This document shows positions 21,335-58,258 of a stretch of 64,000 nucleotides of DNA, piece by piece; position 1 is the first letter of the stretch, and each line of letters starts with the position of its first letter. This DNA comes from Bilabrum cf. latius (lineage: Eukaryota): positions 1,240,001 through 1,304,000 of the forward strand of contig OZ237746.1 of assembly GCA_965178125.1 (NCBI GenBank), written 5' to 3'. The notes beneath the pieces are model-generated. The model worked only from the letters and a program-made list of their open reading frames with translations, was not told the DNA's origin and did no database searches. The position numbers were made by a program, and so were the translations under genes.

Positions 21335-22243
21335 TTACCAGAAGAATCTCCACCAGATGACAAGCAAGATGACAAGCACCCCAATGGCCACAGGGGCCCA
21401 CCTCCTGACCTGGTCCATCCACCTGAGCTTCTTGGCGCTCCACCGCATGCGCTTCGACTTGGTCACAAGCTCGCTCGTGCTGTCCCGCACATCGTCCAGC
21501 TTTGCCCCTCTGTCCAGCAGGTCGTGGATGTTCTCCGTCATCACCCGCCGGATGTCGCCCAGGTCTGACTGAACCTGGCCCGCCAGGCCCCCGCCGGAGG
21601 GTCCCCCCGAGGCAGCGGCCACGCCCGCGCGGGATCGAACCCCGCTGGATCCCACCACCCCGCCAGCCGCACTCACGTACTCTTTTCTGCGCTAGCGCAG
21701 GCGCTGGTCAAATGACGCGCACGGGTATCCCCTCGACTGCCTCGCGAGAGCCAGCAGCCAGTCCCGGCCGAAGTGCTCCTCGAGGTAAGCCAGGAAATCG
21801 CCCGCCAGCGCATCCAGGAAGGCCACCGCCGTGCGCTGGGAAAACTGCTGCGAGCTCGCCGCGAGGAACACCAGGTCATCTCGGCACAGGACCGCGTAGT
21901 ACGAGTCTCCCATATCCACGCATGTTCTTGAGGCGCCTTCCTGCTTGGCTCCGATTGCGCGCGCCACCTTGCCAGCCTGCAAGTGGGGAAAGACGCGGCG
22001 GTAGCGTATCATGCAAGTGGGGCATCAAACCAAGCAGTGATAATTGACGAACAGCTGGCCCTGAAACCGTTGCATCTTTCGGTTTGAGATAGACCCACTG
22101 CGTACCTACACGTGTACCGAACCACTGCAAGCTCTCACATCTCTAGTCGCTTCAGATCCTAGCTATCGGGCCGAAGAGTCTTCGACAGACACAAGCGGAA
22201 AGCCATCGGACGCCTTACAGATCAGCACGTAAGCCAAAGACAT
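21335..22243 (-). CDS. SEC22: SEC22-like longin R-SNARE (~248 aa)
   Basis: Exon 1 starts at ATG 22243 (MSLAYVLICKASDGFPL). The intron is probably 22138-21977; an alternative in-phase donor is possible. The longin domain is followed by the SNARE motif VMTENIHDLLDRGAKLD and a TM tail ending WWRFFW at TAA 21337-21335. TAGs at 22163 and 21692. Confidence 0.9.
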
Positions 22244-22716
22244 GCTGCAATTGCCACTTTAAAAACGCACCGAACGGCAACTGCGCGTGAGGAACGCTAT
22301 CTGCCGCAGTGTCCTTCTCGCTTGCCAGCTTCGCAAAGTTAGAGACTTTATTCTTCAATTAAACAGGATCACTTGCTTCCTGAAAGTTGGTCCTAGCGCC
22401 GTCGTTGCTTGTGGACGTGCACCTGCTCTGCAAGATCGGTTGTAACCAAATAGTCTGGTATTTCAATAAAGTATCCCTATCGAAAACCGTTTGGGGATGC
22501 GGCTCGTGTTGCATTAAAAGTAGAAGACCGAGTGAGTTTGCCCGCGCTGGTATGCTGCATATGGATTTGCCATATATACTGGGTTCATATTCTCTCTATA
22601 TGGAGCTGCTCACGCGGCAGTGGCGGAGCGAGTATGCGATTGGTCACTGCAACAGCCAAATTGAGCTCCTACGCCAATGTTGCTCTATGTATCGCCCCAC
22701 CCTCCGATTTCGCAGG

Positions 22717-23438
22717 ATGCCCAAGACCCCGAGGTAAGTGTTTTGTTGTGTTGTCTCTGTGCTGCGAATGGTGAACCCGTGCACGCGTGCAAGACTGCAA
22801 ACCTGGCAAGTTCGAACTTGAACCGATCGAATGAAGTGAACGCCACCAGAATCTGCCAAGGCTGTCGTGCAGCTGCGGTGCACCCGTGACAATAGCCTCA
22901 GTTGTAGATTAGCTTCTATTGTACTCGCTGCTTGTTGTTTGCAATGGCTGTGGTAGAACCTAGCCCCACCGTCCACACCACCGGTTTGAAATTGAAATCG
23001 GCAGCGACAGCACCCGCTGATGGGGCCCGTGCATAGGGTTCGTGCCATCCAGATTGCATCAATATGATTATATTATATTGTGTACCGTACTTTGTGCGCA
23101 GCAAGAAGAGCGGAAAGGCCACGAAGAAGTCGGAGGGCTCGCGCCGCCGCCGCAAGCGTACCGAGACGTTCTCGTCTTACATCTACCGCGTGCTCAAGCA
23201 GGTGCACGCCGAGATCGGTATCTCCAGGAAGGCAATGAACATCATGAACTCGTTCGTGAACGACACCTTCGAGAGGTTGGCCAACGAGGCCATCCGCCTG
23301 GCCAGGTACACGAAGCGAACGACCATCACGAGCCGAGAGATCCAGACGGCCGTGCGTCTGCTTTTGCCCGGCGAGCTCGCCAAGCATGCCGTGGGTGAGG
23401 GAACCAAGGCTATCACCAAGTACAACCAGCTCAACTGA
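22717..23438 (+). CDS. H2B: Histone H2B, intron-containing
   Basis: Exon 1 is 22717-22733 (ATG CCC AAG ACC CCG AG). Intron 22734-23101 (GTAAGT...CGCAG). Protein: MPKTPSKKSGK...[15 protein letters not shown]...[11 protein letters not shown]...[21 protein letters not shown]; ends at TGA. Confidence 0.97.
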
Positions 23439-23845
23439 GTGTGGTGGCCCGGCATTCGAGGCAGATGCAGGGGCCCGAGGCTGACGGCCCTCGGCCGTTT
23501 GACCAATGGGGTTCGGGAGCAGGGAGTGGAAATGCTTCTGGTCTGGTCTGTCCCGACCACATGATTTGATTGATTTGAACGAACAAGACAAGATTCAGGT
23601 AAGGGCACAGAAACCATGAAGACTGTCTGCGTGAGCAAAATCATCTAGACACTCAAAAAACCGCATGGTGCAGGATTCAAACTGCCCAGCTGAAACCAGC
23701 CAACCCAAAGAGGCCCGTTCATCCTCCGCCGCGCAAGGAAAGCGAGTAGCCCTGCTGCCTGCAGCATGGAACGCGAACCATCGTCCAGGTCCATGTGCGG
23801 CAAGCAAGCCACCCCACCCGTCACCGTCACCCTGGCACTCTCTCC

Positions 23846-25474
23846 TCATCGGAACCCCGTGGACCCCGGCCTGCTGCTGACCCCGCTCCTGGCCCTGCCC
23901 CTGCCCTTGGCCCCGCCCCCACTCCCCGAGGCCCCGGAGGGCAGCGGCGGCGGGCACATCCTCGCGGTGGCGCACCCCATGGCCAGCAGAGCCCCTGCGA
24001 AGAGCATGGCCACCACGGTGCGAGCCGCCCACCGGGTGCCCAGCCCCTTGGCCTCCTCGTGCGCCTGCTGCGCCTGCTCCTTCACATGCGCCTGCACCCG
24101 CTCCAGGCGTCCCCCCAGCGCCTCCTCCGCCCTCTGCAGCCGCTCCAGCGTCTCGTCGAAGTGCCTCCCCACGGACGCAACCTTGGCCTCGAGCTCCTTG
24201 CGCAGCCCACGCACCTGGGCCCGGTCCTCCTCGGCCTGCCGCTGCAGGAACTGCACCACGCCCGCGGACCGGAGCACCTCCTCGATCTCCTCGGCCGACA
24301 TGGTCACGCCAACCCCTGCTTCTGCACCGGCCTTGCCACCCCCCTCCCCCTCGCCCTCGCCCTCGTCCCCTCCCCCCTCCTCGTTGCTATCCTCGCCCGC
24401 CTGCACCACCCCGCCCCACTCCCCGCTCTCGATGGCCCCCGCCACCCCTTTCTCCGCGAAGAAGGACAGCCACAGGGCGTCGTGCTGGTCCGTGAGGTCC
24501 CCCGTGCTGGCAGAGAGACCCACCAGGGGTCCCATTGGGGACATGCCGTCCCCCCCGCCGCTGGGGACGGCCCGCCGCCCCTCTCCCCGGGCCTGGGCCT
24601 GGGCCGCGCGCAAGTCAGCAGCCGTGACCCTGGCTCGGGCACAGTGCACCCAGCCCTGCGACGAGTCCGGGTCCGAGGGCAGCGCGTCCGGCCCCGGCCG
24701 CTGGGAAAAGTACAGCTTCAGCTGCAGCTCACCACCCACGTAGAGCGGACCCTCCCCCTTTCCCTTCCCCGTGGCCTGTGCGGCGGCCTAGGAGGCCCTG
24801 GCCCTGGGCTTAAGCGGCTCGTGCGTGAGGCGGGCCGTGACGTACTTGCCCCCCGAGCCGAACTGCCGGATCCGGGCGGAGCACTCGCTGCCCGACGGGA
24901 GGCTCGAGCCGCCGTCTGCGGCGTTCCGGTCGAACGGTGCGTTGAAATGCTTGCCATCTGAGAACGCCATTGACACGGAAGGGTACTTGCGAGCAGACTG
25001 GCGGCCGCCAGAGTTGTCAAACGTGTCGAAAAATACGCCGAGCCCGCGATACTCGGTCGAGTGGCCGAAGTTGTTGCCGTTGCGCGGCCTACCCTGCACG
25101 AGCCACAGTGCCATTCCGTCGCCAAAGTATGCCGCCGAAGTGCCTCCTATGCGCATCTGCAGGTCGATCCGCCATCTCCCGGCAAAGGCGCGCTCGCTTG
25201 GCGGATCGTGCAGCCACAGCCAGCCTCGCTGCCCCTGCTTGTTTCGGGTGAGTCTCACGCGATCATCGTCTACCTCACTGTGACCACCAATATCCCACCT
25301 GGAAAGAAGCATCAACGCTGGGTCAGGGTCGCCCTCGTTCCGCTGCTTTGCGGTGAGATCAAAGCTCATCTGGGGCACCCGCACGAGGTCTGCCTGCCTC
25401 GGTCCAGCGCCCGTGGCTGACTGGATCCATATTGCAGCAAAAATCAAGCTCGCCAGCATTGTGCCGGCGCTCAT
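23846..25474 (-). CDS. L-type (legume-like) lectin membrane protein, VIP36/ERGIC-53 family
   Basis: Signal-like MSAGTMLASLIFAAIWIQSATG; the exact start ATG is uncertain. Motifs DRVRLT...GWLW, FGDGMALW and GLGVFFDTFDN. One TAG at 24788 joins the lectin domain to a coiled coil and TM segment; TGA is at 23848-23846. Confidence 0.85.
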
Positions 25475-25701
25475 CAGTAGCCAGTGCGGCTGCGGTGCGA
25501 ATGGTCCATTTGGCGAGATGTGGTCCTTCATGAAGGTTCCCTCCGTGGGTTGCACCTCGGCCAAACTTTTTAGCGAGCAAATTCTGGGTATGTAAGTCGG
25601 ATATGAGAGACTAATTGTTGGCAATTAGAAATACTATCGATTAAGCATGTTTCTTGCCAGGTTGCTTCCCTGTGTCCGCAGAGTTTACTACACCGGAGCA
25701 G

Positions 25702-26221
25702 ATGCAGTCCTTGCTTGTGTGCATCGCCGCGGTGGCTACGGGAGCCTTTGCTGCCAACTGCCCAGAAATCGCAGATTATCCGCACTGCAAATTAGATTGC
25801 TATTTCGACTGGAACGTGGTCCCGCCAATCGGGTCTCACACGTGAGACTGCTGGCATGGGTTGATCAAGGTTTCGCTCGTCCCGTTCTTGAGCAAGCTAT
25901 CCCGTATTGCTCCGCCCCGCGAACTGTGCCGCCGACCTGCCGTGCAGGTTCACTTGCTAGGGAGTACCTGCCAACGAGAACGTGACAGTCCACTTCTCTG
26001 TGACGAAGCAGCCGGGCATGTCGGCCGGCGTGGGTCTGGACGTCTCGCTGAACGGGGAGAAGCTGGACGAGTACGTGCTGGAGCCGGACTCGCCGCAGAA
26101 CATCTCAGTGACAGAGAGGAATCCCCGCCCTGACGCTGGCAACTGGCAGTTCTACTTGCACAATAGGGACTGGCTCGTTTGGAAGCACGCAGATGTGCGT
26201 TTCCAGACCGACCTATTCTGA
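25702..26221 (+). CDS. Small secreted Cys-containing protein of unknown function (~137 aa)
   Basis: Signal peptide MQSLLVCIAAVATGAFA. Intron 25842-25947 (GTGAGA...GTGCAG, phase 2) joins two listed ORFs. One TAG (FTC*GVP); TGA ends at 26221. Confidence 0.65.
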
Positions 26222-26320
26222 TGTTCCGATCATCACCTGCACCCCGCCCTGATAGATCGAGCGGGTGGTACCCTGCTCGCATAGGCAGTGCTGGCTACCA
26301 CTCTAGACCCGAAAGGCGGC

Positions 26321-26641
26321 TCACTACCGCATGATGCGTTGATCTGCTTCAAGTTGCTTGCTGAGAGGCAGCTGCTGCTCGGGGCCGCACTCGTTGCGGT
26401 GCTGCCCTGCGCGGAGCTGCGACCTGCTTGTTCTCTATAAGATTGCATCGAGCAATTTAATTTTTTTGGCATTCGCGTGGACTGATGCCTGGGTCATAGG
26501 TGCTGCAGCCTCCCTCTTCCCGCGGGGCGGGGATGATGTGAACAGACCTCGCGAGCATCTGGCCGGCCTCTGCCACCCCATCCACTGCAAATCATAGCAC
26601 TCAGTATCGCGTTTTGACGAGCTCACTCTCGAGCTGCGCAT
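26321..26641 (-). CDS. Possible small basic hypothetical protein
   Basis: ATG 26641 to TGA 26323-26321 with two TAGs. The Arg/Ser-rich N-terminus resembles a mitochondrial presequence, and there is a possible 42-nt in-frame GTGAG...TTGCAG intron. No recognisable homology. Confidence 0.25.
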
Positions 26642-26754
26642 GTCCGGACCGCTTGCTTCGCTCCGACGTCGCGCCGACCAGCCCGCCCGGCGGTGGAGCA
26701 AAACCGGAAGACTCAACTTGCATGTGACGTGGCGATGCAAACGCCACTGAATTG

Positions 26755-28998
26755 ATGCACCGAGCTCTCCAAGCTCGTAACTCTGCATCCAGGGTTGTAA
26801 ATCATAAACTTATGTCAAGACACATGGCCCGAGCAGGGCCGCTCGGATCGAAGTCGGCGTCGTCTGCACCTGCAAGCAAGTCACCAGGAATCGTATGGTT
26901 CAAGCAGACCGACTTGCGGCTACACGACCACGAACCGCTAACTATGGCCCATGCATCCCACAGTAGTGTGGCGCATGTGTTTTGTTTTGACCCTAGATGG
27001 TTCGGTACGACCCATTTCTTCGGTTTGCCGCGCGTTGGCTTGCACAGGGCAAGGTTCATGCTCGAGTGCGTGGCCGATCTTCGCGCACAGCTGGAAGGAC
27101 GCGGTGCCCGCCTCATGATTCGTTATGGCAGGCCAGAAGATATTCTTCCCGCCGTGGCTCGATCAGTAGGTGCGACTGCGGTGTACGCACACGAGGAGGC
27201 TTGCATTGAGGAGCGAGACACGGACGCCGCGGTCGGCCGGGCGCTAGCATCCGTAGTACCAGGGTTAGGGGGGAGCTCCTCATCAGCGGCAGCAGTGGGA
27301 GGTGCCTCTGCATCGAGCGAGTCCAAAGAAGCAGCTTCGAACTGGCCGGGTGCACGGCTGGTATCCCTGTGGGGCGGCAGCACCATGTACCACATCGACG
27401 ACCTGCCCATGGACGCACGCAGGAGAGGTGAGGTACCCAACGTGTACACGCAGTTCCGCAAACTCGCGGAGAAGAACTGCGAGGTCAGGGACCCACTGCC
27501 CGCTCCGAAAGCCGAGGCAATCAGGCCAGCGCCCGAGGGGCTACAGGCCGCGGGGGTGCCGCCTGCAACCGAGGCCGTGGGGGCGGCTGTGGCGGGGGCG
27601 GCGGGGGGCTGGGGGGCGCTGCCCTCGATGGACTAGCTGGGTGTGCGTCTGCCCCCCGGGCTGGAGATGCTCGCTGGCACAGGCGGCAAAGAAATGGAGG
27701 AGGAGAAGGAGGTTGCCGCGGGAGGGGCAGCCCTCTCGGTGGAGGCCAAGGAGGACGAGCCAGGGCTGGAGGCAGGGGCAGTGGCGGTAGGAGCATCCTC
27801 CGGTGCGGGTGCATCGCACGGTGGTGCTCCTAGCGCGGATTCTCTGCTGTCAAGCGGTTGGCGGGACCCCCGCTCCGTGCTTCCGTTCGTTGGCGGCGAG
27901 TCGGCGGCGCTGTCCCGTCTGCACTCGTGGATGTGGGAGGGCGACCATCTGAGGAGATACAAGGAGACGAGGAACGGCATGGTGGGCGGGGACTACTCGA
28001 GCAAGTTCTCCCCCTGGCTCGCATTTGGGTGCATCAGCCCCCGCCTGATCCACGAGGAGGTAAGGAGGTACGAGAAGGAGAGGGTGTCCAACTCCAACAC
28101 GTACTGGCTGCTCTTCGAGCTCATCTGGAGGGACTACTTCAGGTTCGCCAGCCTCGGGTGGGGCTCTTCGCTGTTCCAACTGGGCGGTCCTCGTCGGGTG
28201 AAGCCGCACGAGACGGAGAGGCTCTGGAGGAGGGACCCGGCGCTGTTCCGGGCGTGGGCGCAGGGGCGCACTGGGTATCCGTTCGTGGACGCCAACATGC
28301 GGGAGCTGCTGCAGTCCGGGTTCATGAGCAACCGCGGGCGCTAGAACGTGGCCAGTTTTCTGGTGAAGGACATGGAGCTGGATTGGAGGCTCGGGGCGGA
28401 GTGGTTCGAGTCGCTGCTGATCGACCACGACCCGGGGGCCAACTACGGGAACTGGACCTACCAGGCCGGGGTGGGGGCTGACCCGCGGGAGGACAGGTAC
28501 TTTCTCATCCCCAAGCAGTCCCGGCAGTACGACGGCAAAGGGGCCTTCATGCGGCACTGGCTCGGGGCCGAGACGGAGGGCTGGAGCAACGAGGCGTTGC
28601 ACCAGCCGCACATCCGGGCACGGGACCTGAGGGCAATGGGGGAGGAGCCGCCCACACCGGGGCTGCCCGCGAGCAAGCGGGGCAAGGGGGGAAGAGGAGA
28701 CCCCATGCCGGACCCCAGCGCGCTGCAGGCCCCTGTGGACGGGGCCTACCCGTGGCCCGTGGTGGAGCTCATGGCCGTGAGGTCGCCCAGGGGTGGGGGT
28801 GGGGGCCGGGGGGGCGGGGGAAAGGGGGGCCGAGGCGGAGGGGGCAAGCGTGGAGGCAAGGGGGGCAAGGGGGGCCGCCGGGATTTCTCGACGCGCGCCA
28901 GTGGAGGTGCTGGAGAAGGCGAGGGTCGGGGCGGCAGGGGCGGCAAGGGGCGGCGCTCGCGTCGTGGGGGCAAGGGGCGCGTGCAGCACCTTGGGTGA
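26755..28998 (+). CDS. CRY-DASH: Cryptochrome DASH (photolyase family) with RGG-rich C-terminal tail
   Basis: Motifs WFKQTDLRLHDH, GGESAAL, YKETRNG...DYSSKFSPWLAFGCISPR, FELIWRDYF, GYPFVDANMREL, GFMSNRGR*NVASFL and NYGNW.Y.AGVGADPR. TAGs at 27634 and 28342. Start is ATG 26755 or 26812. Confidence 0.95.
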
Positions 28999-29142
28999 AC
29001 GAGCGGGCACGGCATGGATTCTCGGGTGTGTCTGGGTGTGGCATTCCGTGGTAGCACACGCATAGAGTATAGTATTTCACACACCTCAATCCGCTGGGAT
29101 GGGCAAGACAGACCCTTGATGCTCCACAGTCCCGTGCTCGGC

Positions 29143-29904: not shown

Positions 29905-30059
29905 TATTGGACTTGCAAAGCGAATGTATCATCTTGCAGTTCTCTTTCGCAGGTGTGATGAATGCAGTGGAGCGGTTGTAACCAAGTTGCAACCGGCTGA
30001 CATTGGCTGCTGCAGCAGCACGCGACAAAGTGCCTTCCGGGACTGACAGGCCTGATAGC

Positions 30060-30970
30060 ATGCTAAGACGAGCTGTAGCTCGCGGTGGAAGGCAGGCATT
30101 GGGATGCTTTAGGCGCACTAGCATGCAGCGAGTTGCTCCTATGCAAGTACGAACAGCATACCAAACGCTGAACAGACCAGCAGATGCAAAGGCCAAAATT
30201 CACAACGCTGACGAAGCAGGATACATGATGGACCCATCTTAGATTCAATTGTAGAAGTAGTAGGTCCTTGAAGAGGTAGATGGCGAGCTAGCCCGGCGAA
30301 ATGTGTACGAACAGGCTCAGGACGAGCTCCAGATCACCACTGGCGCGAAGGCCTTCGAAATTCGTGAGCAAGTCTCGCGCTGCCCCCTCTGGTGGTATGC
30401 TCCTGTATAGTATGTGTATTTCTGCATTGGATACTCTCGGCTCTGCACGAACCTCCATTGTCTTCGCTACCTTCGTTCGACTACGCAGTGCTGGATCGAA
30501 TCGCCTTCTTGATGCTGATCACCGACATGTTCCGGGGGGTTGCCATCGCAATGGAGCAGTGGTACAGACCCAAGGCCACCATCCTTTATCCATTCGAGAA
30601 GAACACGTACTCGCCACGATTCCGCGGGGAGCACGCCCTGCGGCGGTACCCGTCGGGCGAGGAGAGGTGCATCGCCTGCAAGCTGTGCGAGGCTATCTGC
30701 CCCGCCCAGGCCATCACTATCGAGACAGAGGCTCGCGACGACAACAGCCGGCGCACGGTCAAGTACGACATCGACATGACCAAGTGCATCTACTGCGGGT
30801 TCTGCCAGGAGTCGTGCCCCGTGGACGCCATCGTAGAGGGACCCAACTACGAGTTCGCCACGGAGACACACGAGGAGCTGCACTACGACAAGGAGAAGCT
30901 GCTGGCCAACGGGGACAGGTGGGAGAGGGCGCTGGCCCACAACATCGAGGCCGATGCGCCCTACCGATGA
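30060..30970 (+). CDS. NDUFS8: Mitochondrial complex I Fe-S subunit TYKY/NDUFS8 (NuoI homolog)
   Basis: Presequence-like [19 protein letters not shown]. Four TAGs lie at 30240-30263. Intron 30364-30488 (GTGAGC...CGCAG). Motifs [31 protein letters not shown] and [16 protein letters not shown]. Confidence 0.97.
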
Positions 30971-31506: not shown

Positions 31507-33666
31507 ATGCCTGCGGATGGCATGTCGAACAGCGTCTTGCTGTGGCAAACTTCGAGCTTTGTGCTATTTCTGAGCGTAGGCCTTGGAATCCCCGTCATGG
31601 AGGGCGCCATGGCGCCGTTGGGGCTGCTTCCATACGCAGCAGCCGCCCTGACGGCCTGGAACGTGCTTCTCGCCTGGCGTTTCACCGAGCCTGCACTGGC
31701 TGTCGTGGAAGATCGCATCCAGAACATGCAAAAGAATTGGGACGAAAACACTATCCGCTGCTTTGTGGAGATCGTTGGCCTCGTCGCTGGGACGAGCTTC
31801 GGCGTTGCACTCTCAGGAGCAAACGGCTCCCCTACTGTACTTGCCCGCGCAGCCATCGGTGGGATCGCCGGATTCTCACTGGCGGCCGCAGTGTTGATTT
31901 GTGCACAACTTGCATTGGATCGGCTCGACGATTCGGCTATGAAGAGCTACCGAGCGCACGCTGAGGGCATTGCAAGATTGGCAAACAAGCAGCAGGATCG
32001 CCACGACCTCAGGATTGAAGCCGAGAATCGCGCGCGCACCGCGTCGTCTCAAGGCTCGAATTCTGATTGCGAGGAAGAGGAGCAGAAGGTCGAGGATGAC
32101 GACGACCTCAGCCGTGAGTCGTCCAGCGACTCCCTGGCGATCGAGCAGGAGCGAGCAGAGCCGGTGACCGCAGCCGAGCAGCAAACCGCCCCCGTGTGCC
32201 CGATGGACGTTCCCTCTGAGAAGGACATGATCTGGAGGGAGGAGCAGGGCGTCTCGGTGCTGGTGCCCCGCGGCATCCCCTCCCGCGAGCACAGGGCCTC
32301 GGAGGCGCCGCTTCGCACTGACATCACCATGGCCGAGGTGGCGAGGCACTGCACGCGGAAGGACGCATGGATCTGCATCGAGGGGCGCGCCTACGACGTG
32401 ACGAGCTACGTGGAGCGGCACCCGGGGGGCTGGCTCCCCATCGCAGACCTGGCGGGCAAGGACGTCACGGACGCGTTCGCCAACTACCACCCCGCCGCGG
32501 TGTACGAGAAATTGCTGCCGCAGTTCTACATCGGGGACATCCAGGACTACTCGGAATCAGAATTCGTCCGGGAGCACCGCGCCATCCGGCAGGAGCTGCT
32601 GCGGGAGGGGCTGTTCGAGACCCGACCGTCCTTCTACGCGTACATGGGCGCTTGGTACGTGCTTCTCTTCTCGGCGGGCGTGTTCTTCACCGTGATGCGG
32701 CCCACCGTGGCGGAGCACATGGTGGGAGCCTTCTTCTTCGCTTTCTTCTGGCAGCAGGTGGCCTTCTTCGGGCACGACATCGGGCACAACTCGGTGTCGC
32801 ACAAGCGCGAGTCTGACCTGTGGTGGGGCATCGTGCTGGGGAACACGACCGGGGGCATCTCGTTGGCGTGGTGGAAGCGCTCGCACAACGTGCACCACGT
32901 GGTCTGCAACTCGATCGAGCACGACCCTGACATCCAGCACATGCCCATCTTCGCCGTGGACGAGGGCATCTTCGGCAAGTTCTTCTCCACCTACCACCAG
33001 AGGGAGGTGATCACGGACGCGGCCGCCCGCTTCCTGGTGCAGTTCCAGCACTGGCTGTACCTCCCGGTCATGGCCGTGGCTCGGTTCAACCTGTACGCGC
33101 AGGGCTACCTGCTGCTGCTGTCCAAGGAGAAGGTGCAGTGGAAGGCGATGGAGCTGGGCACCCTGTCCGTATTCCTCAGCTGGTTCACCGCCATGGTCTG
33201 GCTGTGCCTGGGCTCCTGGCAGGAGAGGGTGGCCTATCTGCTGCTGTCCCACGGGCTGGCTGGTCTTTTGCACGTGCAGATCACGCTGTCGCATTTCGCC
33301 GAGGACACGTACCACGGGGGGGCCTACAACGACGAGTCCGACGAGTGGTTCCGCATGCAGACCAAGACCTCGCTCAACGTGGACTGCCCCAAGTGGATGG
33401 ACTGGTTCCACGGAGGCCTGCAGTTCCAGATCGAGCACCACTTGTACCCTCGCCTGCCGAGGCACAACCTGAGGGCCGCCCGGGAGAGGGTCCGGGCCCT
33501 GTGTGCCAAGCACGGGGTGCAGTACAAGGAGATGGGATTCTTCAAGTGCGTGCTAAGGGTGCTGCAGAAGATGAAGGAGACTGCCATCAAGGCGGGCCAG
33601 CTGACGAAGGGAGACGCCGGCTTCTACGAATCGCCCCTCTACGCCGGGCTGCACGCCGAGGGCTGA
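31507..33666 (+). CDS. Cytochrome b5-fusion front-end desaturase (delta-8 sphingolipid / delta-6 type) with N-terminal membrane extension
   Basis: HPGG haem motif and three His boxes (HDIGH, HNVHH, QIEHH), plus DPDIQH and WFHGGLQFQ. Uninterrupted ORF ending at TGA. Confidence 0.93.
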   Translation: MPADGMSNSVLLWQTSSFVLFLSVGLGIPVMEGAMAPLGLLPYAAAALTAWNVLLAWRFTEPALAVVEDRIQNMQKNWDENTIRCFVEIVGLVAGTSFGVALSGANGSPTVLARAAIGGIAGFSLAAAVLICAQLALDRLDDSAMKSYRAHAEGIARLANKQQDRHDLRIEAENRARTASSQGSNSDCEEEEQKVEDDDDLSRESSSDSLAIEQERAEPVTAAEQQTAPVCPMDVPSEKDMIWREEQGVSVLVPRGIPSREHRASEAPLRTDITMAEVARHCTRKDAWICIEGRAYDVTSYVERHPGGWLPIADLAGKDVTDAFANYHPAAVYEKLLPQFYIGDIQDYSESEFVREHRAIRQELLREGLFETRPSFYAYMGAWYVLLFSAGVFFTVMRPTVAEHMVGAFFFAFFWQQVAFFGHDIGHNSVSHKRESDLWWGIVLGNTTGGISLAWWKRSHNVHHVVCNSIEHDPDIQHMPIFAVDEGIFGKFFSTYHQREVITDAAARFLVQFQHWLYLPVMAVARFNLYAQGYLLLLSKEKVQWKAMELGTLSVFLSWFTAMVWLCLGSWQERVAYLLLSHGLAGLLHVQITLSHFAEDTYHGGAYNDESDEWFRMQTKTSLNVDCPKWMDWFHGGLQFQIEHHLYPRLPRHNLRAARERVRALCAKHGVQYKEMGFFKCVLRVLQKMKETAIKAGQLTKGDAGFYESPLYAGLHAEG

Positions 33667-33872
33667 GGGAGCAAGGCCCACGAAGGGCGTCTGGGAGGAA
33701 TCTTTCGTGTTGAATGTAACCAGTCTTTGTCGTACTTGGTCAGTGGATCAACTAGCCATTGTTGCCTTATTCTCCGATAGTTTTCTGCTCCATCTGCAGT
33801 TGCTGTTGAGACCCAGCAACGGATCGCTGCGTGGAGGCCTCTGCACTTGGTCCCGCTGTTCTACCTACGCGC

Positions 33873-36416
33873 ATGGCGTCAAGGCGTGCCTCCCTTCAAG
33901 ATGACGCGAGGCTTCTTTTGGCATCAGAGTCCGAGAGAGACGCCAAGCAGCCGACGAAAGCCGCCCGAGTGCCCGACGGAAGCCGTAGGGAGACGATGCG
34001 CGCTGGAATGGCAGTGTTCGGCCAGCCAAGCATGCTATCGTGGGCTTCCTTTGCTGGTACACGAATGTGGGGCTTGTGCACCTGGTCACGCGATGGCTCG
34101 CCGAATCCAGTCCCGCTGCATGCCGAGGATGAGGAGCTGGATTACGCCGGGATCTCAAGTGCAAGTGGCGGCGGTCCGATTGCCGCGCCCGGTATCGTTA
34201 CGAGGCAGCCTAGGCCTCTGCCGATTGACTCTAGGGCGTAGTGGCCAGATATGCCGAGCCTTGCCTCGCAATTCGCTCGGATTCCCTTTGAACACGCTGC
34301 TACAGGCGGGCGGACGAGTTGCAGGCTTGGTCGAGTGCCCCCTTCTGGGCTTCTTGAACTGATTGCATTCGCTGAAAGTCAACCGAGGCATTTTACGATG
34401 CCATTACACATTTTGACGTCCAAGCGATCGGCAGAGGATCTAGCCGTGGAGGACGGGGCGGCACACGAGGCTCGGGCGTCTGCCGCCTCGGCAGGAGGGG
34501 ACGAGGAAATGGGCGGTCGCCTGATCCTCCGGAGCGATTCGCCCGTGAAGGACAGGACCGGCGGACCTTTGGCCATGCGACCGGGCCTGGACGCGGGCCA
34601 CAGCAGCATCCTCTCCCTAGCGCCCCCCTCGGAGCAGGAGGGCGGATTCGACCCCTCTTTGCTGGACGGGGGGCCCAGCGCGGCCTCGGTGCCCTCCCAT
34701 ACGACCGAGAGAACAATGGGCGAAGGGAGTGTAACCCTGCCCGGAGGCAGCACCACGGCCGCCGTGCTCCCCACAGCAGCGGCCCAAGCCCGCGTGCTGC
34801 TCGGGCTAGGAGACAGGCCCCCCGCCAGGGCCTCCACGGGGAGACCGCCCTCCAGGCCTGCCCTGGCTGGATCGCTGGAGCGGTGGAGCAGGCGCAGGGA
34901 GCCCTTGGGAGAGGCCATGCGCGGCGCCGGGGCCATTGATAGGCGAATCAAGGATGACGGGGCGTCCTCGATGGCAGAGGGGAAGGCGGGCGAGCTGGAG
35001 GCAGGCGCAGAGATACAAGCGGCGGAGGGGAGCCCCCGCAGCATGCACGACACACCGGAGCACGGCCTCACCCTCCCCCCGGGTATGTCCTCTGTGATGG
35101 TTCGGGGACACGTCTCGGCTGACGCGTGGCAGCCCACTGGGACGGTGCACGTGTTCGGGTCACCTGGCCCGGGGAGGGTGCGGCTATCACTGCTGCTGTC
35201 TCAGCACCCACCCGCCGCCCTGCTTGTTCCCTCGGATGGGCCGGGTGCTCCTGGCATGCGGGCGGGATCGACCCTGTCCGGGACTGCTGCGGGGGTGGTG
35301 CTTGGTGCGGCCGGCAGGGGTCCTCTGGGGTGGCGGCCGCAGGGGGAGTGCTACGGGTGGGTGGGTCGCAGAGTATGGGTGCGCAGGCGACTTTCCACTG
35401 GCTTGCTGGAGCTGTGGCCGTACAGCACCTACGCGGCTGCCTCCATCTCGCAGGCCGGGGCACTCACAGGGGGTGGCGGCATCACTGCGGGAGAGGGCTG
35501 GAACGCGGACCCCTCCCAGTCCCAGTCCCAGTCCCAGCCGCATCCCCCCGCAGGAAGGGTCCTGCCTGCGGATGACCCCTCCTGGTCCAGCGAGGACAGC
35601 GGGTGCGCGCTTGCTGGGAGCGCGCTTGGGCTTGCGGGGCCCGTGCCGGGGACTGTAGCGGTGGACGTGTGGTTCGCGCGAGACGGGAGCGGGCGGTGCC
35701 TCATCACCACGCACCAAGAGGGCGCGGCGGGGGCCTACGAGGCCGCGGGGCTGGCGGGCCGTCGATTGGCCGCTGGTGGGGAGGGGCCTCGGGGGGCTGG
35801 GCTGGCGGGGGGCACGGCGGGGGACTGGGCCGGGAGGGTTCCATCGCTGGCGGGGGCGGGGGCCTTGCCCCACGAGTGGGTGCCGGGATTCCGGTTTTAC
35901 GCCTTCGCGGCTCGCGTGGCCGGGACGAGTCCGCTGGCTCTGTTCAGCCGGAAGGTGTCTCGGAGCGCTCTGGCAGATGCAGAGACCGAGGCTGCCATGG
36001 CGGAGGAGTAGGATGGGACTGTGTGGGGAGGGGAGGAGGAGGAGGAGGAGGAGGATGGCGTGGAGGAAGAAGAAGGCGGTGGGACCGAGAGGGATGCGGG
36101 GCATGGGGGTAGGGACGGGGGCTTTTCGGCTCGAGTGCGGAGTGTCAGGGCCGAGCTGAGGCGGCGGTGGAGGAGGGCCCAGCGGGCACCCAGAGGGAAG
36201 GCTTCCATCTCGAGGGCGGGGGCCAGGGCGGCCGTGGCTGTGGCCGGGAGGGCCGCAGGGGGGGACCCTGCGGCGGCAGCTGCGGAGCTCGCCGAGGCGG
36301 GTCACCTTGCTGCCGAAGGGACGGACGAGGCGGTCCACTGCGAGCTGAGGGACCCCAAGGACGGGCCGCCGGTTGGCAAGTGGAGGCACATCACTACCCT
36401 ATTCATGTTTCCGTGA
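33873..36416 (+). CDS. Hypothetical protein (~847 aa)
   Basis: Three listed ORFs share one frame, joined by TAGs at 34239 and 36009, and end at TGA 36414-36416. Low-complexity linkers alternate with globular-looking blocks. No family recognised. Confidence 0.6.
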
Positions 36417-36462
36417 AGAGCTTCCGCATGCTGCATATGTTATATATAGTCTAGTATCATAC

Positions 36463-36927
36463 TCAAGATCCAGCTCGCCTGATCAGCATGTATATCCTCT
36501 GGTCAAGGCTAATGTTGACCAAATGACTCGGGTGGGACTGGATCATCATGAGCAGTCCGCCGAAACTAGCGATAATTGCGACTCTCGATGACTTAGTCTT
36601 CTAGTACCTGAAGACCTTGCCACACATCCCGTAATCGTACTGATCCAGCAGTGTTTTCTTGCCGCTCTAGTCGTATGTATCCACGTCGTCCTCCTTGCCG
36701 TCCAGTCGCAGGGTCGATGCCAATGCAATGGTCAGCCTCTATCCAACCTTAACAGGAAACAGTTCTGAGGCCACGTCAAACACGAGGTCCGCTCCGAAAG
36801 CAGTGCAGTGAGACACAACTCGATCCACTCGCTTGAACGTCTTTCCCTCCGGGTTTACCTTTTGCACCTCAAACAAGTCCTCGAACAGAATCTGAGATGA
36901 ACTACCGCTTGAAGACGATCCGGACAT
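36463..36927 (-). CDS. RPB8: RNA polymerase I/II/III shared subunit RPB8 (154 aa)
   Basis: Motifs ILFEDLFEV...GKTFKRVDRV, LFPVKVG*RLTIALASTL, LLDQYDYGMCGKVF, ASFGGLLM and RIYMLIRR. TAGs at 36739, 36667 and 36601; TGA at 36465-36463. Confidence 0.95.
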
Positions 36928-37200
36928 GGCAACCTATCCGCCAGCTGCTGCCATGCTTGGGGTTTGCGCTCGTTGCCGTCTGTGGAACATCATGCGGAAC
37001 CAATTGCGCGGCGCCGAACGATGGAGCATGGACAATACATTGCTGCTAGACTCCAGCGTGATAATAGGAGTCATTCAGTGCTGGCATGATACAAGGCGTA
37101 TTTCTGGCAAGAAGGTCCCACTGAGCCAATCGCGTGGCTGCACGAGCCTAAACCCCACACCACAGCGCTAAACGAAGCAGTGCCTGCCCAATCGCTCTAC

Positions 37201-38180
37201 TCAGTGCTGAGAGTTGCCCCGAGCACGAAGACCATCCTCTGGATTGCCTCCCAGCGGAACTGCAGGAGAGCCCCCGAACCCAGGAGTGGGTCCCACCGGT
37301 GCCACGCCGGCCTCTGCCTAGGCGCCACCGTCTCCCACAAACGCCCCCTCAGCGTCTGCCCCGCCGCGCGATGGGTCCACACCCCCGGGACTGCCAAAAC
37401 CGGGAGCGTTGACCGTGCCGCCCCCAACTCCCTGTCCCGGTCCCGCATGGCTGGCAGCGACCTTGGCTGGGCCCCCGCCGGTCCCAGGGGCAGCACCCCC
37501 ACCCATGGTAGAGAGCCAGTTCCCCAAGGTGGGGGCGGACTTGTACCTGAGTTTTACCTGCTCCACCCCGGCGGGAACTTGCCTAGTGCACGCGTGCGCC
37601 ACCAGCAGCAGGAGCGGCAGCAGCCATGCCAACAGCGTCGAGTAGAGCCCGCCCAGCGGGACGAGCAACAGCACAAGCAAGAACAGGACCAGGTAGATCC
37701 GTGCCTTTTCCATGGCCCCATCACTCTGCAGGAACTTGATTCCGGTTGAAGCCACCATTTTCTTCAAGAAGTTGTGCGCAGCTGCCGGCGGCCGCAGCGC
37801 AACCAGGACAAGCACGAGGCCAAAAACAGAGACAAACAGCATGAGTGGCGAAAACATCTGCCAGAGCAACAACGTGATCAGATAGATCCACATGTAGTTT
37901 CCCGCGAAGTAAACAAAGTTAGCCGCAACATGCTTCTCAAACTTGTTCCAGGCCGTTGGCGGAGCCTAGAACTTCTTGTAATCGAATAGCTGCCCCCACG
38001 GTCGAAGCCCCTTCCAACACACGCCTTTGATTAACGCTACGATCTCCGAAACATCTGCGGCGATATGGCACTGGGTGAGAGCTCATCGAAACGGTTTGCG
38101 CAGATGTTGCTACAGTGCGTTGAACTGCCATCTGCATGCTTGGCCAGACCCGTCGTTTTCTGCTCACCCTTCTTGTCCAT
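37201..38180 (-). CDS. PRA1 (prenylated Rab acceptor) family membrane protein
   Basis: Exon 1 is 38180-38168; intron 38167-38055 (GTGAGC...CGCAG). Motifs LRPWGQLF...F*AP...NFVYFAGNY, hydrophobic hairpins and HACTR. TAGs at 37966 and 37318; TGA at 37203-37201. Confidence 0.85.
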
Positions 38181-38400
38181 TTTGATCAAGCTTTGCCTGC
38201 TTGATCAATGATACAGTCTAACTTGCCAGGAGACTGCACCGTCGAATATAATTGGGCCGATGGATTGAGCGACACCGCGATCGGGTGAGCCGGAGCGGTT
38301 TCGCTACTAGTAGTATGGAACGTTCCTCTGGTTGGAACAAGCTCGAACTTTCAATTGGTTTTTATGACCAGATGTAGCTCGCAAGATGACGTAATACTGC

Positions 38401-41400
38401 ATGGATAGCTTTTTAAAAGATAGTGGTCTGGTGATTCCACCCATAGGGCCTTGGAGAATCAACGAGAGGACCCAGTCTTAGCAGCAAGCCCAAGACATTG
38501 CCTCGGAGCGCCTCGAGCATGAGGCTTGCGGGAACTGTGGTGGCTCACAATGGACAAATGATGAATTTGGTGGTGTCCATTGCGCCCTGTGTGGTTCATA
38601 GCTTGTCGTATAGCGGAGGGATGAGCATGCCGACGCCAGCTAGGCAGTTGGCCAGCAGCCCACCACTGGCCGCTCTAGGCGCATGCGCGGGCGAGCAAAT
38701 ACCCGAGACACTCGTGTAACGTTGATATCAAGGCCGATTTTGCTTCGCAAGCAGCCCTCTGTCGATGACCCTGGCTTCACTGCATCACTGAGCAAGCGAG
38801 AAGCGAGAGCGCTCGGCTCGGCGCTCACTTGGCTGCTCAGCAGGATGTGTCGCGCGGCTGACGCCCTCATGATGGCCACGGCTAGCCAACTGGATAGACG
38901 GGCTGCAGTCGGCAGCGCATCAGCCCCGACGTGCCCGTCCGGCTCCCCCGAGTGCTCGCTGTGCCGTGCCCGCCGACACCTCGCCCGCAGGATGGCACCG
39001 CTCGAGCCGGGCGCCCTTGAGGCCCGGAGCAAGGCCATCTGGGCGGGGGTGCTGCGGTTGTATGCGACTGGAAGCGACAGCTAGGCCGGTAGCGGTGCTG
39101 CGGACGGGCCATCGGGTGGGGTAGGGAGTGGTGCAGGCCGGAAGCGAGGCCGGCATGAGATGGGGGCCGATTCTACCACTGCCACTGCGACCGCTGGTGA
39201 GCACCGTGATGAGGACGAGGGCGGTGGTAGCACTGGTGATCGTGAAAGTGATCGTGATAGTGGTGGTGATGATGATGACCGCGGTGGCGGCGCAGGTGCA
39301 GAAAGCGGCAATCTCGTGTCCGAGGCGCGAGCCAACGAGTGGGCGCTGGGTGTACTCGGGCAAGGTGCCGGACATGGACATGGACATGGTGGTGAGCGTG
39401 GAGGCGCTTTGGGTCCGATGGATGTCCGGGTGGCGGCGCTGCCCCCCTTCACGGCCAGAGGACTGCTGCCGGTGCTGCTGCTGGCCCTGCAGTCGCTGCA
39501 GCTGCCCGTCGGGGCATTCGACGTGTGCTCGTGGGCGGGGGCTGGGCTGCTACCGTTCTTGCGCGCCTGGCTCGCAGTGCCTGGGGATCTGGTGGGGCCA
39601 CTGTGGAGGGTGCAGGGTGCTCTGCTGCCCAGACAGGTCCCTGGACCCGAGTGGGTGGAGCGGGCTGCAGGGTGGCTCGCTGGCTCGCTCGGGATGCGCC
39701 TGGGACTGCCTCATGCTCTGCCCCTGCGGACCGCTGGCCTCAGGCTCATCGCGAGAGCGGATGGTATGGGGCTGCTGAGGCACGGGGACAACCAGCTGGG
39801 CGAGTTTGGCCTGCTGGCTAGTGTGATGAGTGACCCGGTGGGCGGCATGCAGCGTGCCTATGGCTCGAAAGGGGGCTACTCCTTGCTTGCCGCTGCGGTG
39901 CAGCAGGTGCAACAGGTGCAGCAGGCTCGAGGGCATGGCGCGGGCCAGGACAGGAATGATATGAGCGCAGGCTCGTAGTAGACGACAGCTGCAGCTGTTT
40001 CTGATGCGAGTCACACGGACACCGACACGGACACCGACACCGACATGGACACCGACACCGAGCCAGCCCAAGCACACCGGGCCGGCTCCAGCTCTGGCCC
40101 CGCCCTGTAGAGACTAGAGGAGCAGGCGGGGGCCTCCTCGCGAGGGCACAGACACGCACGGCTGGTGCGGGCAATCCAGGGGCTCGCCAGCGACCGACCT
40201 GTCCCCAGGCCCCTGGATCGCTGGGCGCACGCCGGGCCTCTCGCGGGGGAGGACGGGCGGTACACCGGGCTGCGCTCCCCGGGGTGCGCGGTGGCGAGGC
40301 AGATGTGGCTGCTGGCCACCAGACAGCGCTCTAGCCTGAGGCTGCAGCGCGTTGTGGACGCGGTGTGCCGCTGGTAGAGCCGGGCACATGCCAGCGGCGT
40401 GCTGGTGGCGGCTGGAATGCTCGTGGGCAGGCTAGCTGTCCGTGACTGGGGATGGGAGCAGCCCCCGGGCATCGAGGCAACTCGAGCTCACGTGTCACCC
40501 CCACCCCCAGCTGCTAGCGAGGTGGACTCGGCCCTGCGATGCGCGGCGGCTTCTCTGGCACTGGCCGGGGCGGCTGGCTGCGACCCTGGTCAACAGGCGG
40601 GCGCGCAGGTGCTGGCACATGCCGCCGAGGTGGCACAGCGGGTGGTGGACCCTCAGGACCGGCCCCGAGGTAGCGAGGGGCTGGGCGTGCTGCGGGCCCG
40701 TCTGCGGGGCGCGAGCTCTGGCCCCGGGGAACAAGGAGAGAGTGGGCCCGCGGGGTGGGTGCCTCCTCTGGTGGACGCGCTGGCTGCCCCGGGGGCGGCG
40801 GGTCGGCTGTTCGCTGGCGTGCCGATGCGGGCGCAGCGCCGCGAGCTGCACAGGGAACAGCGAGTGGCGGCGCTGGGTCTGCCCTCGGTGGGGCCGGGGA
40901 TGGCGGCTTCCCTGCCCCCCGCGCAGCGCGAATACAGGAGGGCCCGACTGTAGGGCACGGCGGCGAAGGCGGTCAGAAGCGCTGCCGCGGGTCTGCTGGC
41001 GGCCGTGTCATTCAGAGCGACCATGCCCGGTGTTGAGCAAGAGGGTGGGGCAAGTGGCGCAGCAACAATAGACGAGAAGGCAGAGGTCAGAGATGGCCTG
41101 CTGGGCTCGTAGGACTCGTAGGGCACACCGCGCTCATTTCGTGAGGGCTGGGACAGGGAGGGGGAGGGCAGTAAGGACGCTGTCCGGGATGCAAGCAGCA
41201 GGGCGGATTGGGTGCTAGTACTGGAGATGCTCCGGGCGTGCCTGGGGCTGGACGCACCAAGTATCGCGAGGCTGTCGGAGAGCAGGCACCCTGGGCACGG
41301 GGCGGCTGCATTGGTGCGGGAGGTGGTGCGGGACCTCGCCGTGGAGGACCTCGAGGGGCTCCTGGGACATGCCGCGGGGCTTGCGGCCACTGCGTGTCTG

Positions 41401-41442
41401 TGCGATCTGCTGGAGCACGGCGAATGCACGATCCGGATGTAA
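38401..41442 (+). CDS. RRN7/TAF1B-like RNA polymerase I initiation factor (~1013 aa)
   Basis: One frame with 12 TAGs, ending at TAA 41440-41442. N-terminal zinc ribbon CGNC...W...GGVHCALCGS*, plus LALQSLQLPVGAFDVCSWAGAGLLPF, which resembles the Rrn7 cyclin-fold motif. Confidence 0.75.
40018..40059 (+). repeat. Imperfect (GACACS)n repeat encoding Asp-Thr repeats
   Basis: gacaccgacacggacaccgacaccgacatggacaccgacacc is visible inside the RRN7-like CDS. Confidence 0.8.
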
Positions 41443-58093: not shown

Positions 58094-58258
58094 TGCATTT
58101 GCATCGCACCCTGCACACTAATGACCCGTCCGCCGGCGTCCATTCGCGGTTCATTCGCGGTTGCAACGTCGAAAATTGAATGAACGGACGGGAAGCCAAG
58201 GCAGGTACTTCGACTCCCACATGAAAGTATGGACACCATAAATCACTTATCAGTAGGA

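Follow-up and report, generated by a model that had tools for sequence, protein, structure and literature searches.

The window analysed here, a 64-kb stretch of DNA, very probably represents nuclear DNA of a GC-rich, gene-dense and intron-poor eukaryote in which UAG encodes Gln and the only stops are UGA, which is common, and UAA, which is rare. The features on which this reading is based are the following.

8414..12133, minus strand: reverse-transcriptase ORF of a retroelement (RVT_1, E 1.1e-09), with 8 in-frame TAG, 0 TAA and a TGA end
21335..21337, minus strand: TAA terminator of SEC22, directly after ...WWRFFW (TGG TGG AGA TTC TTC TGG TAA)
21338..21913, minus strand: SEC22 exon 2, with part of the longin domain, the SNARE motif, the tail anchor and one in-frame TAG
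22025..22243, minus strand: ORF that probably contains exon 1 of SEC22 (longin N-terminus), beginning MSLAYVLICKASDGFPL
26755..28998, plus strand: CRY-DASH (E 2.6e-141 to Arabidopsis CRY-DASH), with 2 in-frame TAG and a TGA end
30512..30970, plus strand: last exon of NDUFS8 (complex I TYKY subunit), with a TGA end
36463..36927, minus strand: RPB8 (E 2.5e-31 to Arabidopsis NRPB8), with a TGA end; its coding part contains 3 in-frame TAG
38401..41439, plus strand: RRN7-like ORF (1,013 codons; 12 in-frame TAG)
41440..41442, plus strand: TAA end of the RRN7-like ORF (ATG TAA); another TAA lies downstream at 41452-41454, and then a TGA at 41461-41463
41584..51093, minus strand: NOT1, the CCR4-NOT scaffold (Pfam Not1, E 8.7e-101, and three further CNOT1 domains), with 20-21 TAG and a TGA end
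58229..63217, plus strand: DNA2 nuclease-helicase (Pfam Dna2, AAA_11 and AAA_12), with 17 in-frame TAG and a TGA end

The Pfam Dna2 domain occupies residues 441-541 of DNA2 and AAA_12 extends to residue 1629, with 12 TAG between them, while the NOT1 domains span residues 1064 to 3295. The TAG at ORF residue 577 of DNA2 faces the Q of mouse DNA2 'ehrsqvvly', a conserved Gln of the nuclease, and the one at ORF residue 539 of CRY-DASH faces the conserved Q of 'snrgrq'. Residues 2-152 of the NDUFS8 exon align to residues 72-222 of the 222-residue plant subunit; since the alignment reaches residue 222, the TGA of this exon coincides with the homologues' own C-terminus. Upstream of it, at 30060 and in another frame, lies an ORF with an Arg-rich N-terminus, and this arrangement of NDUFS8 points to aerobic respiration. 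ARAGORN detected no tRNA gene in the 64-kb window, Rfam returned no match there, and an eRF1 gene is absent from the window.

The 22 coding segments (18,244 codons) contain 97 in-frame TAG, distributed over 18 of them, and neither TAA nor TGA. The two off-frames of the same segments hold 30 and 47 TAA, 104 and 91 TAG, and 254 and 245 TGA, so that UGA, never found in frame, behaves as a terminator. UAA does not occur in frame in any coding sequence, which upholds the claim of the first-pass annotation in the face of 22-32 TAA expected; its counts of 17 TAG in DNA2 and 8 in the reverse-transcriptase gene were also reproduced. The expected number is 22.4 from the CAA:CAG ratio, 32.0 as the sum of per-gene values derived from two-fold codons ending in A or G (Poisson P(0) about 1e-14) and 64.7 from position-specific base frequencies. 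Indeed, CAA accounts for 136 of the 726 Gln codons, so 22 TAA would be expected beside the 97 TAG were TAA synonymous, and none was seen. About 10 are expected in DNA2 alone, and 5.4 in the reverse-transcriptase ORF, given an A:G codon ratio of 0.68 there, with 0 seen in either. The zero count is partly built in, the ORFs having been delimited with TAA as a stop, but it is not circular for DNA2 and NOT1, since homology anchors lie at both ends of one frame. TAA does exist in non-coding DNA, as it is found in frame just upstream of four start regions (2554, 25627/25687, 38392 and 52615); the non-CDS DNA (9,717 bases) holds 55 TAA, with a TAA:TGA ratio of 55:147.

A TAA at 21337-21335 terminates SEC22 right after the tail anchor, as had been reported from the first reading of the sequence. 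The Pfam Synaptobrevin match (E 4.2e-14) is nearly complete at this point, since it extends as far as residue 227 of 229 (model position 87 of 89), and the best PDB match is SEC22b. Read-through into the convergent neighbour gene, also foreseen in that reading, would run through 370 antisense codons before the next in-frame TGA. GC3 drops from 0.83 to 0.53 across the TAA, as the coding signature does at TGA ends, and the SEC22 ORFs of the near-identical relatives P0121 and P0161 stop at the same W. Judged from these alignments, at least one gene, SEC22, can terminate only at UAA. The TAG of exon 2, at residue 74 of the exon translation, faces Q in both relatives and K in SEC22b; translation of this exon with table 15 gives Q at TAG and a stop at TAA. 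The ORF at 22025..22243, for which no Pfam match was obtained, probably holds exon 1; since its frame differs from that of exon 2, an intron would lie between them, with approximate splice sites.

The TAA at 41440-41442 that ends the RRN7-like gene was equally confirmed in the sequence. A second TAA follows after 4 codons and a TGA after 6, and read-through adds 6 codons. GC3 falls from 0.77 to 0.47 across the first TAA, and in the relative P0135 the ORF stops at the same codon. When the TAGs of this gene are compared with a relative, Q is found at 4 of the 5 residue-aligned sites and K at the remaining one. The name given to the gene stands in part: a match to Rrn7_cyclin_N is present, but it is weak (E 0.018, 15.6 bits for a cut-off of 24.1).

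Altogether, 21 gene ends could be defined, 19 of them TGA and 2 TAA (SEC22 and the RRN7-like gene); the first-pass annotation was correct on the two TAA ends but had put the TGA ends at 21. We share its caution that the case for UAA as a stop depends on two ends and on the absence of the codon from reading frames, given that no more than 2 of 21 ends are concerned and only one of these is unambiguous. From these few ends, UAA appears to be a working terminator, the SEC22 end being compelling and the RRN7-like end supportive only. Two of the 21 genes have a TAG within their final 30 codons, with about 3 expected by chance (density 97/18,244). Thus, TAG is not enriched towards the ORF ends of the 21 window genes, and no gene in the window requires TAG as its end. 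In the ABCG-like gene, TAG precedes the TGA by 3 and by 12 codons.

Comparison with relatives bears on the meaning of UAG. Three of three standard-code DNA2 fragments from a relative end exactly at TAG 496, 843 and 1355 of our sequence, and at five other TAG sites its residues are Q, Q, Q, S and L. When DNA2, the RRN7-like gene and SEC22 are taken together, close relatives carry Q at 8 of 11 aligned TAG sites and S, L and K at one each, with 2 further sites opposite gaps. A more distant partner is L001, a metagenome NOT1 that is 58% identical to the window NOT1 and was compared with it codon by codon. Window TAGs face Q at 9 of 17 partners in L001, and L001 TAGs face Q at 15 of 29 partners in the window. 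These 15 represent 12.6% of the 119 window Q sites, while the corresponding fraction is 0-1.9% for S, L, G, P, E, K, R and A. Moreover, TAG recurs at the same positions in a relative, NOT1 2539 in the L001 comparison among them. These exchanges show UAG to be a sense codon that is substituted in the manner expected of Gln codons.

At many window TAG sites, distant homologues of NOT1, RPB8 and SEC22 carry a residue other than Gln. In NOT1, the corresponding columns read S/N at 1809 (H in L001), R/K at 1820 and I at 3095. One TAG of RPB8 lies on a D that is conserved in 5 of 5 alignments among those listed, which lends no support to Gln at this site.

In base composition, L001 has a GC3 of 0.49 and uses 49 CAA and 44 CAG in 2,315 codons. 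It contains 30 in-frame TAG, 0 TAA and 0 TGA, with 27.6-33.4 TAA expected (P(0) 1e-12 to 3e-15). Since its GC3 is low and CAA is at least as common as CAG, yet TAA is missing, GC bias cannot explain this absence. The uncoupling proposed in the first-pass annotation, with UAG a sense codon for Gln and UAA not, thus holds in the window as well as in this lower-GC relative. The UAG/UAA split is common to a clade that includes a relative 85-98% identical and the lower-GC metagenome relative 58% identical to the window.

Were both UAG and UAA read as Gln (table 6, of the ciliate/ulvophyte type), the rarity of TAA would be due to GC content and the two TAA ends would be coincidental. The window is indeed 64% GC, TAA is the rarest plus-strand triplet (143, compared with 391 TAG and 654 TGA), and the RRN7-like gene would gain only 6 codons. 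On the other hand, such a code requires in-frame UAA at Gln positions, and none stands beside 97 TAG in the window, where 22 are expected and about 10 in DNA2 alone, or beside 30 TAG in L001, where CAA even exceeds CAG. In addition, SEC22 would carry a 370-codon antisense tail behind its tail anchor. The UAR = Gln code was rejected, and this account is very improbable. The absence of in-frame TAA suits an unassigned codon as well as a stop, and TAA accounts for only 2 of the 21 ends; UGA could then be the sole efficient stop beside UAG = Gln, with UAA unassigned or avoided, being neither translated nor a regular stop, and both TAA ends mis-modelled. This seems unlikely, since SEC22 is well anchored by its nearly complete Synaptobrevin match, the end conserved in P0121 and P0161 and the drop in GC3, and the share of TAA among the ends (2 of 21) comes fairly close to the non-coding TAA:TGA ratio of 55:147. 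Furthermore, for known UAG-only codes, the available text of PMC5304391 presents no eRF1 that keeps UGA while losing only UAA.

A context-dependent code, with UAG read as Gln inside genes and as a stop near mRNA 3' ends, would recall the stops of Condylostoma or UAA in Blastocrithidia. It could apply to the ABCG-like gene, whose true end could be one of the two TAGs before its TGA, but terminal TAGs are no more frequent than the approximately 3 genes expected by chance and zero genes in the window need one to end, so we regard it as quite unlikely. It is barely conceivable that the in-frame TAGs are untranslated, through pseudogenes, unrecognised introns, RNA editing or assembly error. Introns do exist, as the 5' exons of SEC22 and NDUFS8 lie in other frames; however, TAG is present in 18 of 22 coding segments and inside conserved domain blocks (CRY-DASH, DNA2), its positions recur identically in a relative, between relatives it interchanges specifically with CAG or CAA, and the same frames are wholly without TGA and TAA. 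Of other meanings for UAG, Ser, as in Scotinosphaera, was rejected, being found at 1 of 11 close-relative sites, 1 of 17 in L001 and 2 of 29 of the L001 TAGs. Leu, as in exLh, is found at only 1 of 11 and 1 of 17 in L001.

With UAG = Gln and UAA retained as a stop, the new meaning of UAG could be supplied by a tRNA-Gln with anticodon CUA, as known decoding would suggest. Since CUA pairs with UAG and not with UAA, UAA would be left free for eRF1; the available text of PMC11687900 makes the same argument, that such a tRNA cannot read UAA and lets UAG evolve alone, and it also fits here. The eRF1 itself may no longer recognise G at the third stop position, or may do so less well, with UAA and UGA still accepted. 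New in-frame UAG would mostly arise from CAG by C-to-T change, an origin that fits the concentration of UAG at poorly conserved Gln sites.

UAA and UAG nearly always change meaning together in nuclear codes, and the few exceptions are natural experiments on how eRF1 discriminates the third stop-codon base. The present case adds an apparently non-ciliate, aerobic and GC-rich lineage, together with a lower-GC relative that has the same split; the pair formed by the window and L001 separates the effect of the code from that of base composition. Standard-code gene callers fragment such genes, and DNA2 is found in public protein sets as ORF pieces ending at each TAG, whereas annotation with table 6 would read through real TAA stops. 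The code here is NCBI table 15, which is advisable for annotating this genome and its environmental relatives. The identical table is listed as 'Blepharisma nuclei; some phages: TAG=Q', a bookkeeping entry rather than a lineage, and since the window carries eukaryotic nuclear genes, it is not of phage origin.

Fornicates are not known to possess complex I, whereas the window organism encodes its NDUFS8 subunit and is aerobic, with 64% GC. Within the available text of PMC5304391, the fornicate Iotanema spirale has the same codon table, with only UAG reassigned, to Gln, UAA and UGA kept as stops, and a T32G change in the GTS motif of eRF1. The first-pass annotation rightly named this precedent, but its list was too short, omitting Protocruzia tuzeti, two phyllopharyngean lineages and Scotinosphaera (UAG = Ser). 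Ciliate macronuclear DNA is usually AT-rich and, in Phyllopharyngea, divided into gene-sized molecules; the window, by contrast, is a contiguous GC-rich stretch of at least 64 kb that carries at least 21 genes and a retroelement. As far as the accessible part of PMC11687900 describes them, Protocruzia tuzeti and the two phyllopharyngean ciliate lineages share with the window organism the reassignment of UAG to Gln with UAA kept. The green alga Scotinosphaera likewise reassigns UAG alone, to Ser instead of Gln, with TAA and TGA documented as stops in the accessible part of PMC8271138. In a NOT1 tree whose rows included named green plants and no ciliates, our query lay outside the named green-plant rows. 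The uncultured rhizarian exLh, also a non-ciliate, uncouples UAG from UAA with Leu in place of Gln, according to the portion of PMC5304391 at hand. In the UAR = Gln taxa (Ulvophyceae, diplomonads, oxymonads and Amoeboaphelidium protococcarum), a stop has become Gln and UGA is the main terminator, as here, but TAA is read as Gln too, while it is absent from frames in the window. Amoeboaphelidium was excluded as the source, its genomes having 40% GC in the portion of PMC10608142 at hand, compared with 64% here.

The chances are about even that a previously unreported clade, which would be neither ciliate, fornicate nor green alga, independently reassigned UAG alone to Gln. Under such an independent origin, the reassignment would be old and stable and not a transitional state, since the GC content of the clade ranges from 56 to 64% and its proteins diverge by at least about 40%. 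If this is true, the split persists across very different mutational biases, which argues against GC-driven 'codon capture' as the force maintaining it. UAG = Gln with UAA kept is a rare kind of code already on record, in Iotanema and the above ciliates, and the present lineage adds a further case.

The window has a G+C content of 64.3% over its 64,000 bases (0.56-0.72 over 4-kb windows) and, according to Pfam, PDB and ORF evidence, carries eukaryotic nuclear genes tightly packed on both strands, most of them in the form of a single long ORF. The identified features are as follows.

TGA at 1367-1369, minus strand: Rrp15
Same frame, after the Rrp15 TGA, minus strand: ORF with a signal-peptide-like start and a sub-threshold match to the GH141 insertion domain (E 0.0013; score 19 bits, cut-off 27)
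8414-12316, minus strand: reverse-transcriptase (RT) ORF of a retroelement
11538-21230 including a 5' extension, plus strand: giant ORF, 3,181-codon protein, sub-threshold UBA match (E 7e-4; score 19.8 bits, cut-off 22.4)
21338-21913 (main exon) and 22025-22243 (first exon, other frame), minus strand: SEC22
30512-30970 (main exon) and 30060-30512 (first exon, other frame), plus strand: NDUFS8, a complex I subunit
38401-41439, plus strand: RRN7-like protein, Rrn7_cyclin_N match with E 0.018, below cut-off
41584-51549, minus strand: NOT1
58184-63217, plus strand: DNA2 (Pfam Dna2 and AAA_12)
63295-63963, minus strand: ABC-2 transporter, partial
Other genes identified: histone H2B, ERGIC-53-type lectin, CRY-DASH, L7Ae-family protein, cytochrome-b5-fused desaturase, RPB8, PRA1 and pyridine-nucleotide oxidoreductase

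The spacer between Rrp15 and the next gene is only about 130 bases long, and the distance between convergent genes is 80-142 bases. Since the 5' exons of SEC22 and NDUFS8 are in another frame, introns exist but are few; these putative introns appear biased toward the 5' ends, and the large genes are uninterrupted. The RT ORF overlaps the 5' extension of the adjoining giant ORF on the opposite strand, which places the retroelement at or in the 5' region of the giant gene, and its TAG usage is like that of host genes (8 TAG and 0 TAA in frame). NOT1 has about 3,170-3,320 codons, compared to 1,849-2,688 residues among the 120 listed homologues, and its surplus consists of low-complexity sequence rich in Ala, Gly and Ser, a feature that several other window genes share. 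DNA2 contains about 30 consecutive serines (59100-59250, plus strand), while the corresponding run is far shorter in P0124, a DNA2 fragment from a relative.

To count stop triplets, 22 coding segments totalling 18,244 codons were used, each beginning at the first ATG or at an exon backed by homology and ending just short of the stop codon. TAG occurs 97 times in frame, compared to 104 and 91 times in the two off-frames; TGA is absent in frame and occurs 254 and 245 times off-frame. The first-pass annotation had found no in-frame TAA in any coding sequence and, indeed, the count is 0, against 30 and 47 off-frame, though this zero is partly built in, as TAA served as a stop in the delimiting of ORFs. 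Were TAA synonymous with TAG, the CAA:CAG bias (136:590) would predict 22.4 in-frame TAA, and a gene-by-gene estimate from A- versus G-ending two-fold codons gives 32.0 (Poisson P(0) ~1e-14), with about 10 in DNA2 alone and about 5 in the RT ORF. The zero is a genuine observation in genes that are anchored by homology at both ends in one frame. For instance, DNA2 carries 12 TAG between its Pfam Dna2 domain (residues 441-541) and AAA_12, which extends up to residue 1629, and the domains of NOT1 span residues 1064-3295. Furthermore, 55 TAA were found in 9,717 non-coding bases and in-frame TAA lies directly upstream of four start regions, so the triplet is not absent from this DNA.

The main rival explanation is that TAA is rare solely through GC bias. 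It was removed by L001, a 6,945-base metagenome contig and the sole match of one NOT1 metagenome scan, whose product is 58% identical to the window NOT1 over 2,398 columns. L001 has only 56% GC and a GC3 of 0.49 in its NOT1 frame, where CAA is at least as frequent as CAG (49 versus 44), yet this 2,315-codon frame contains 30 TAG, no TAA and no TGA, whereas each of the other five frames holds 4-20 TAA. A Gln meaning for TAA would predict 27.6-33.4 in-frame copies (P(0) from 1e-12 to 3e-15). Since L001 displays the same TAG-sense, TAA-free pattern, the split belongs to a clade rather than to a single assembly. The uncoupling of UAG from UAA proposed from the window (97 TAG versus 0 TAA) is thereby borne out in a second genome (30 versus 0). 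Among the contigs searched with SEC22 or DNA2, no further DNA of relatives was found, and the RT gave no match among the viral contigs searched.

Which amino acid is read at TAG was examined at two evolutionary distances. With distant homologues, one TAG of CRY-DASH falls on the strongly conserved Q of 'snrgrq', and one TAG in the DNA2 nuclease domain aligns with the conserved Q of mouse 'ehrsqvvly'. The remaining TAGs lie mostly in variable columns, where distant homologues do not identify the residue: the NOT1 columns across the 120 homologues listed show R/G/Q at 1099, S/N at 1809, R/K at 1820 and I at 3095, one RPB8 TAG is opposite a conserved D in the five alignments shown (5/5), and the SEC22 TAG is opposite K in SEC22b. 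Close relatives, represented by ORF fragments called with the standard code in public protein sets, settle the question. SEC22 shares 217-218 of 229 residues with its relatives P0121 and P0161, DNA2 is 84-89% identical to P0122-P0124, and the RRN7-like protein is 79-82% identical to P0134 and P0135 (BLASTP). At the 13 window TAG sites covered by such fragments, the relatives have Q at eight, S, L and K at one each and a gap at two. All three DNA2 relative fragments stop one residue short of window TAGs (496, 843 and 1355), so the relative has a standard-code stop at those places. The fragment P0134 ends opposite residue 697 of the RRN7-like protein, where the window frame continues without TAG; a lineage-specific TAG, an indel or a contig end could account for this.

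The comparison with L001 gives the same result. Of the 17 window NOT1 TAGs that align with an L001 codon, nine are opposite Q, two opposite E and one each opposite A, H, S, L, D and TAG, and L001 TAGs face window Q at 15 of 29 (L and G at three each, P and S at two each, R, E, K and TAG at one each). As a control, ordinary window NOT1 Q codons are opposite Q or TAG of L001 at 55 of 119 sites; moreover, an L001 TAG is found opposite 12.6% of window Q sites versus 0-1.9% for eight other residues. A single TAG position, window residue 2539, is common to both NOT1 genes. Because the alignments with close-relative fragments and with L001 are mostly Q, TAG behaves as a Gln codon, in agreement with the assignment first proposed. 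The same alignments lend no support to Ser, as in Scotinosphaera, or to Leu, as in the rhizarian exLh.

We then considered gene ends. The first-pass annotation had counted 23 of them, 21 with TGA and two with TAA; both TAA ends stand, at the coordinates originally reported, but the total does not, as 19 TGA are present among 21 definable ends. The UAA call was said to rest on two gene ends and on absence from frames, and 2 of 21 ends are indeed TAA, a share near the non-coding TAA:TGA ratio (55:147). SEC22 terminates with TGG TGG AGA TTC TTC TGG TAA, the TAA lying at 21337-21335, just after the tail anchor. By residue 227 of 229, its Pfam Synaptobrevin match has reached position 87 of the 89 in the model, which makes the protein complete at this TAA. 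Read-through would meet no TGA for 370 codons and would run antisense to the convergent neighbour; a long C-terminal extension would prevent tail-anchor insertion. GC3 is 0.83 before the TAA and 0.53 beyond it, a drop like that at TGA ends, and the P0121 and P0161 ORFs stop at the same tryptophan. The RRN7-like ORF ends with ATG TAA (41440-41442), as annotated, and GC3 falls there from 0.77 to 0.47, the relative P0135 stopping at the same codon. This case is weaker, since read-through adds only six codons before a second TAA and then TGA. UAA as a terminator is thus well supported by one gene, SEC22, and the RRN7-like end is consistent with it. For UGA, the last residue of NDUFS8 aligns with the last of a 222-residue plant subunit, which confirms TGA as a stop. 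Nothing indicates that genes end at TAG as well: it occurs in the last 30 codons of only 2 of 21 genes, about three being expected by chance. The ABC-2 fragment, whose TGA is preceded by TAG at distances of 3 and 12 codons, is the sole window locus where TAG could be a true gene end.

Taken together, these genes show a codon table with UAG as Gln and UAA and UGA as stops, that is, NCBI table 15. Such decoding would involve a tRNA-Gln(CUA) that pairs with UAG but not UAA, and an eRF1 whose recognition of a third-position G is lost or weakened. A CUA tRNA-Gln and a changed eRF1 are the explanations given for other UAG-only codes in PMC11687900 and PMC5304391, the latter describing T32G in the GTS motif of Iotanema eRF1. 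The 64-kb window contains no tRNA genes (ARAGORN), no Rfam matches and no eRF1 gene. Among the 22 sequencing runs listed, 20 contain the window or part of it, six of them at least half its words, and none is recorded as RNA. In public protein sets DNA2 occurs only as TAG-cut fragments, both for the window itself (P0125/P0126) and for the relative (P0122-P0124); standard-code gene calling therefore shreds genes of this clade.

As for the organism, no close named relative was found among the 120 NOT1 matches listed, the best identity being 48% in the most conserved domain. A quick-search NOT1 tree of 55 rows (the query, 16 named and 38 unnamed sequences from these matches) groups the query, whose branch is very long (1.43), with the environmental sequences P0031, P0045 and P0014. 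This weakly suggests a position outside the named sequences of green plants and opisthokonts, the placement being weak because of the single gene, the quick search and the skewed composition. PDB best matches are not discriminating: RPB8 is nearest plants, H2B nearest animals, and NDUFS8 matches plants, fungi and animals about equally. Fornicates are not known to possess complex I, and NDUFS8 thus speaks against that group. Ciliate macronuclei are generally AT-rich, and gene-sized in Phyllopharyngea, so a contiguous GC-rich stretch of 64 kb or more speaks against the ciliates in which UAG=Gln is known. Relatives are present in runs labelled 'algae metagenome', which, together with its stop-to-Gln code, made the genus Amoeboaphelidium a candidate; it was rejected because its genomes have 40% GC (PMC10608142, Table 1) compared to 64% here. 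Taken together, these points make an independent origin of UAG=Gln in the window's organism plausible.

The observation itself is confirmed, and the sequence evidence supports both the uncoupling of UAG from UAA and the reading of UAG as Gln. In the literature covered, chiefly papers outside subscription journals, no non-ciliate of high GC content was described as using UAG for Gln while retaining UAA as a stop. Reassignment of UAG only is already known but rare, and the window is a further case. According to PMC11687900 and PMC5304391, UAG alone encodes Gln in Iotanema, Protocruzia and two phyllopharyngean lineages, as in the window. In the same sources, a rhizarian (exLh) and other phyllopharyngeans likewise reassign UAG alone, but to Leu, and in PMC8271138 Scotinosphaera does so to Ser, instead of Gln. 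The special value of the present case lies in two relatives of contrasting GC content that have the UAG/UAA split in common.
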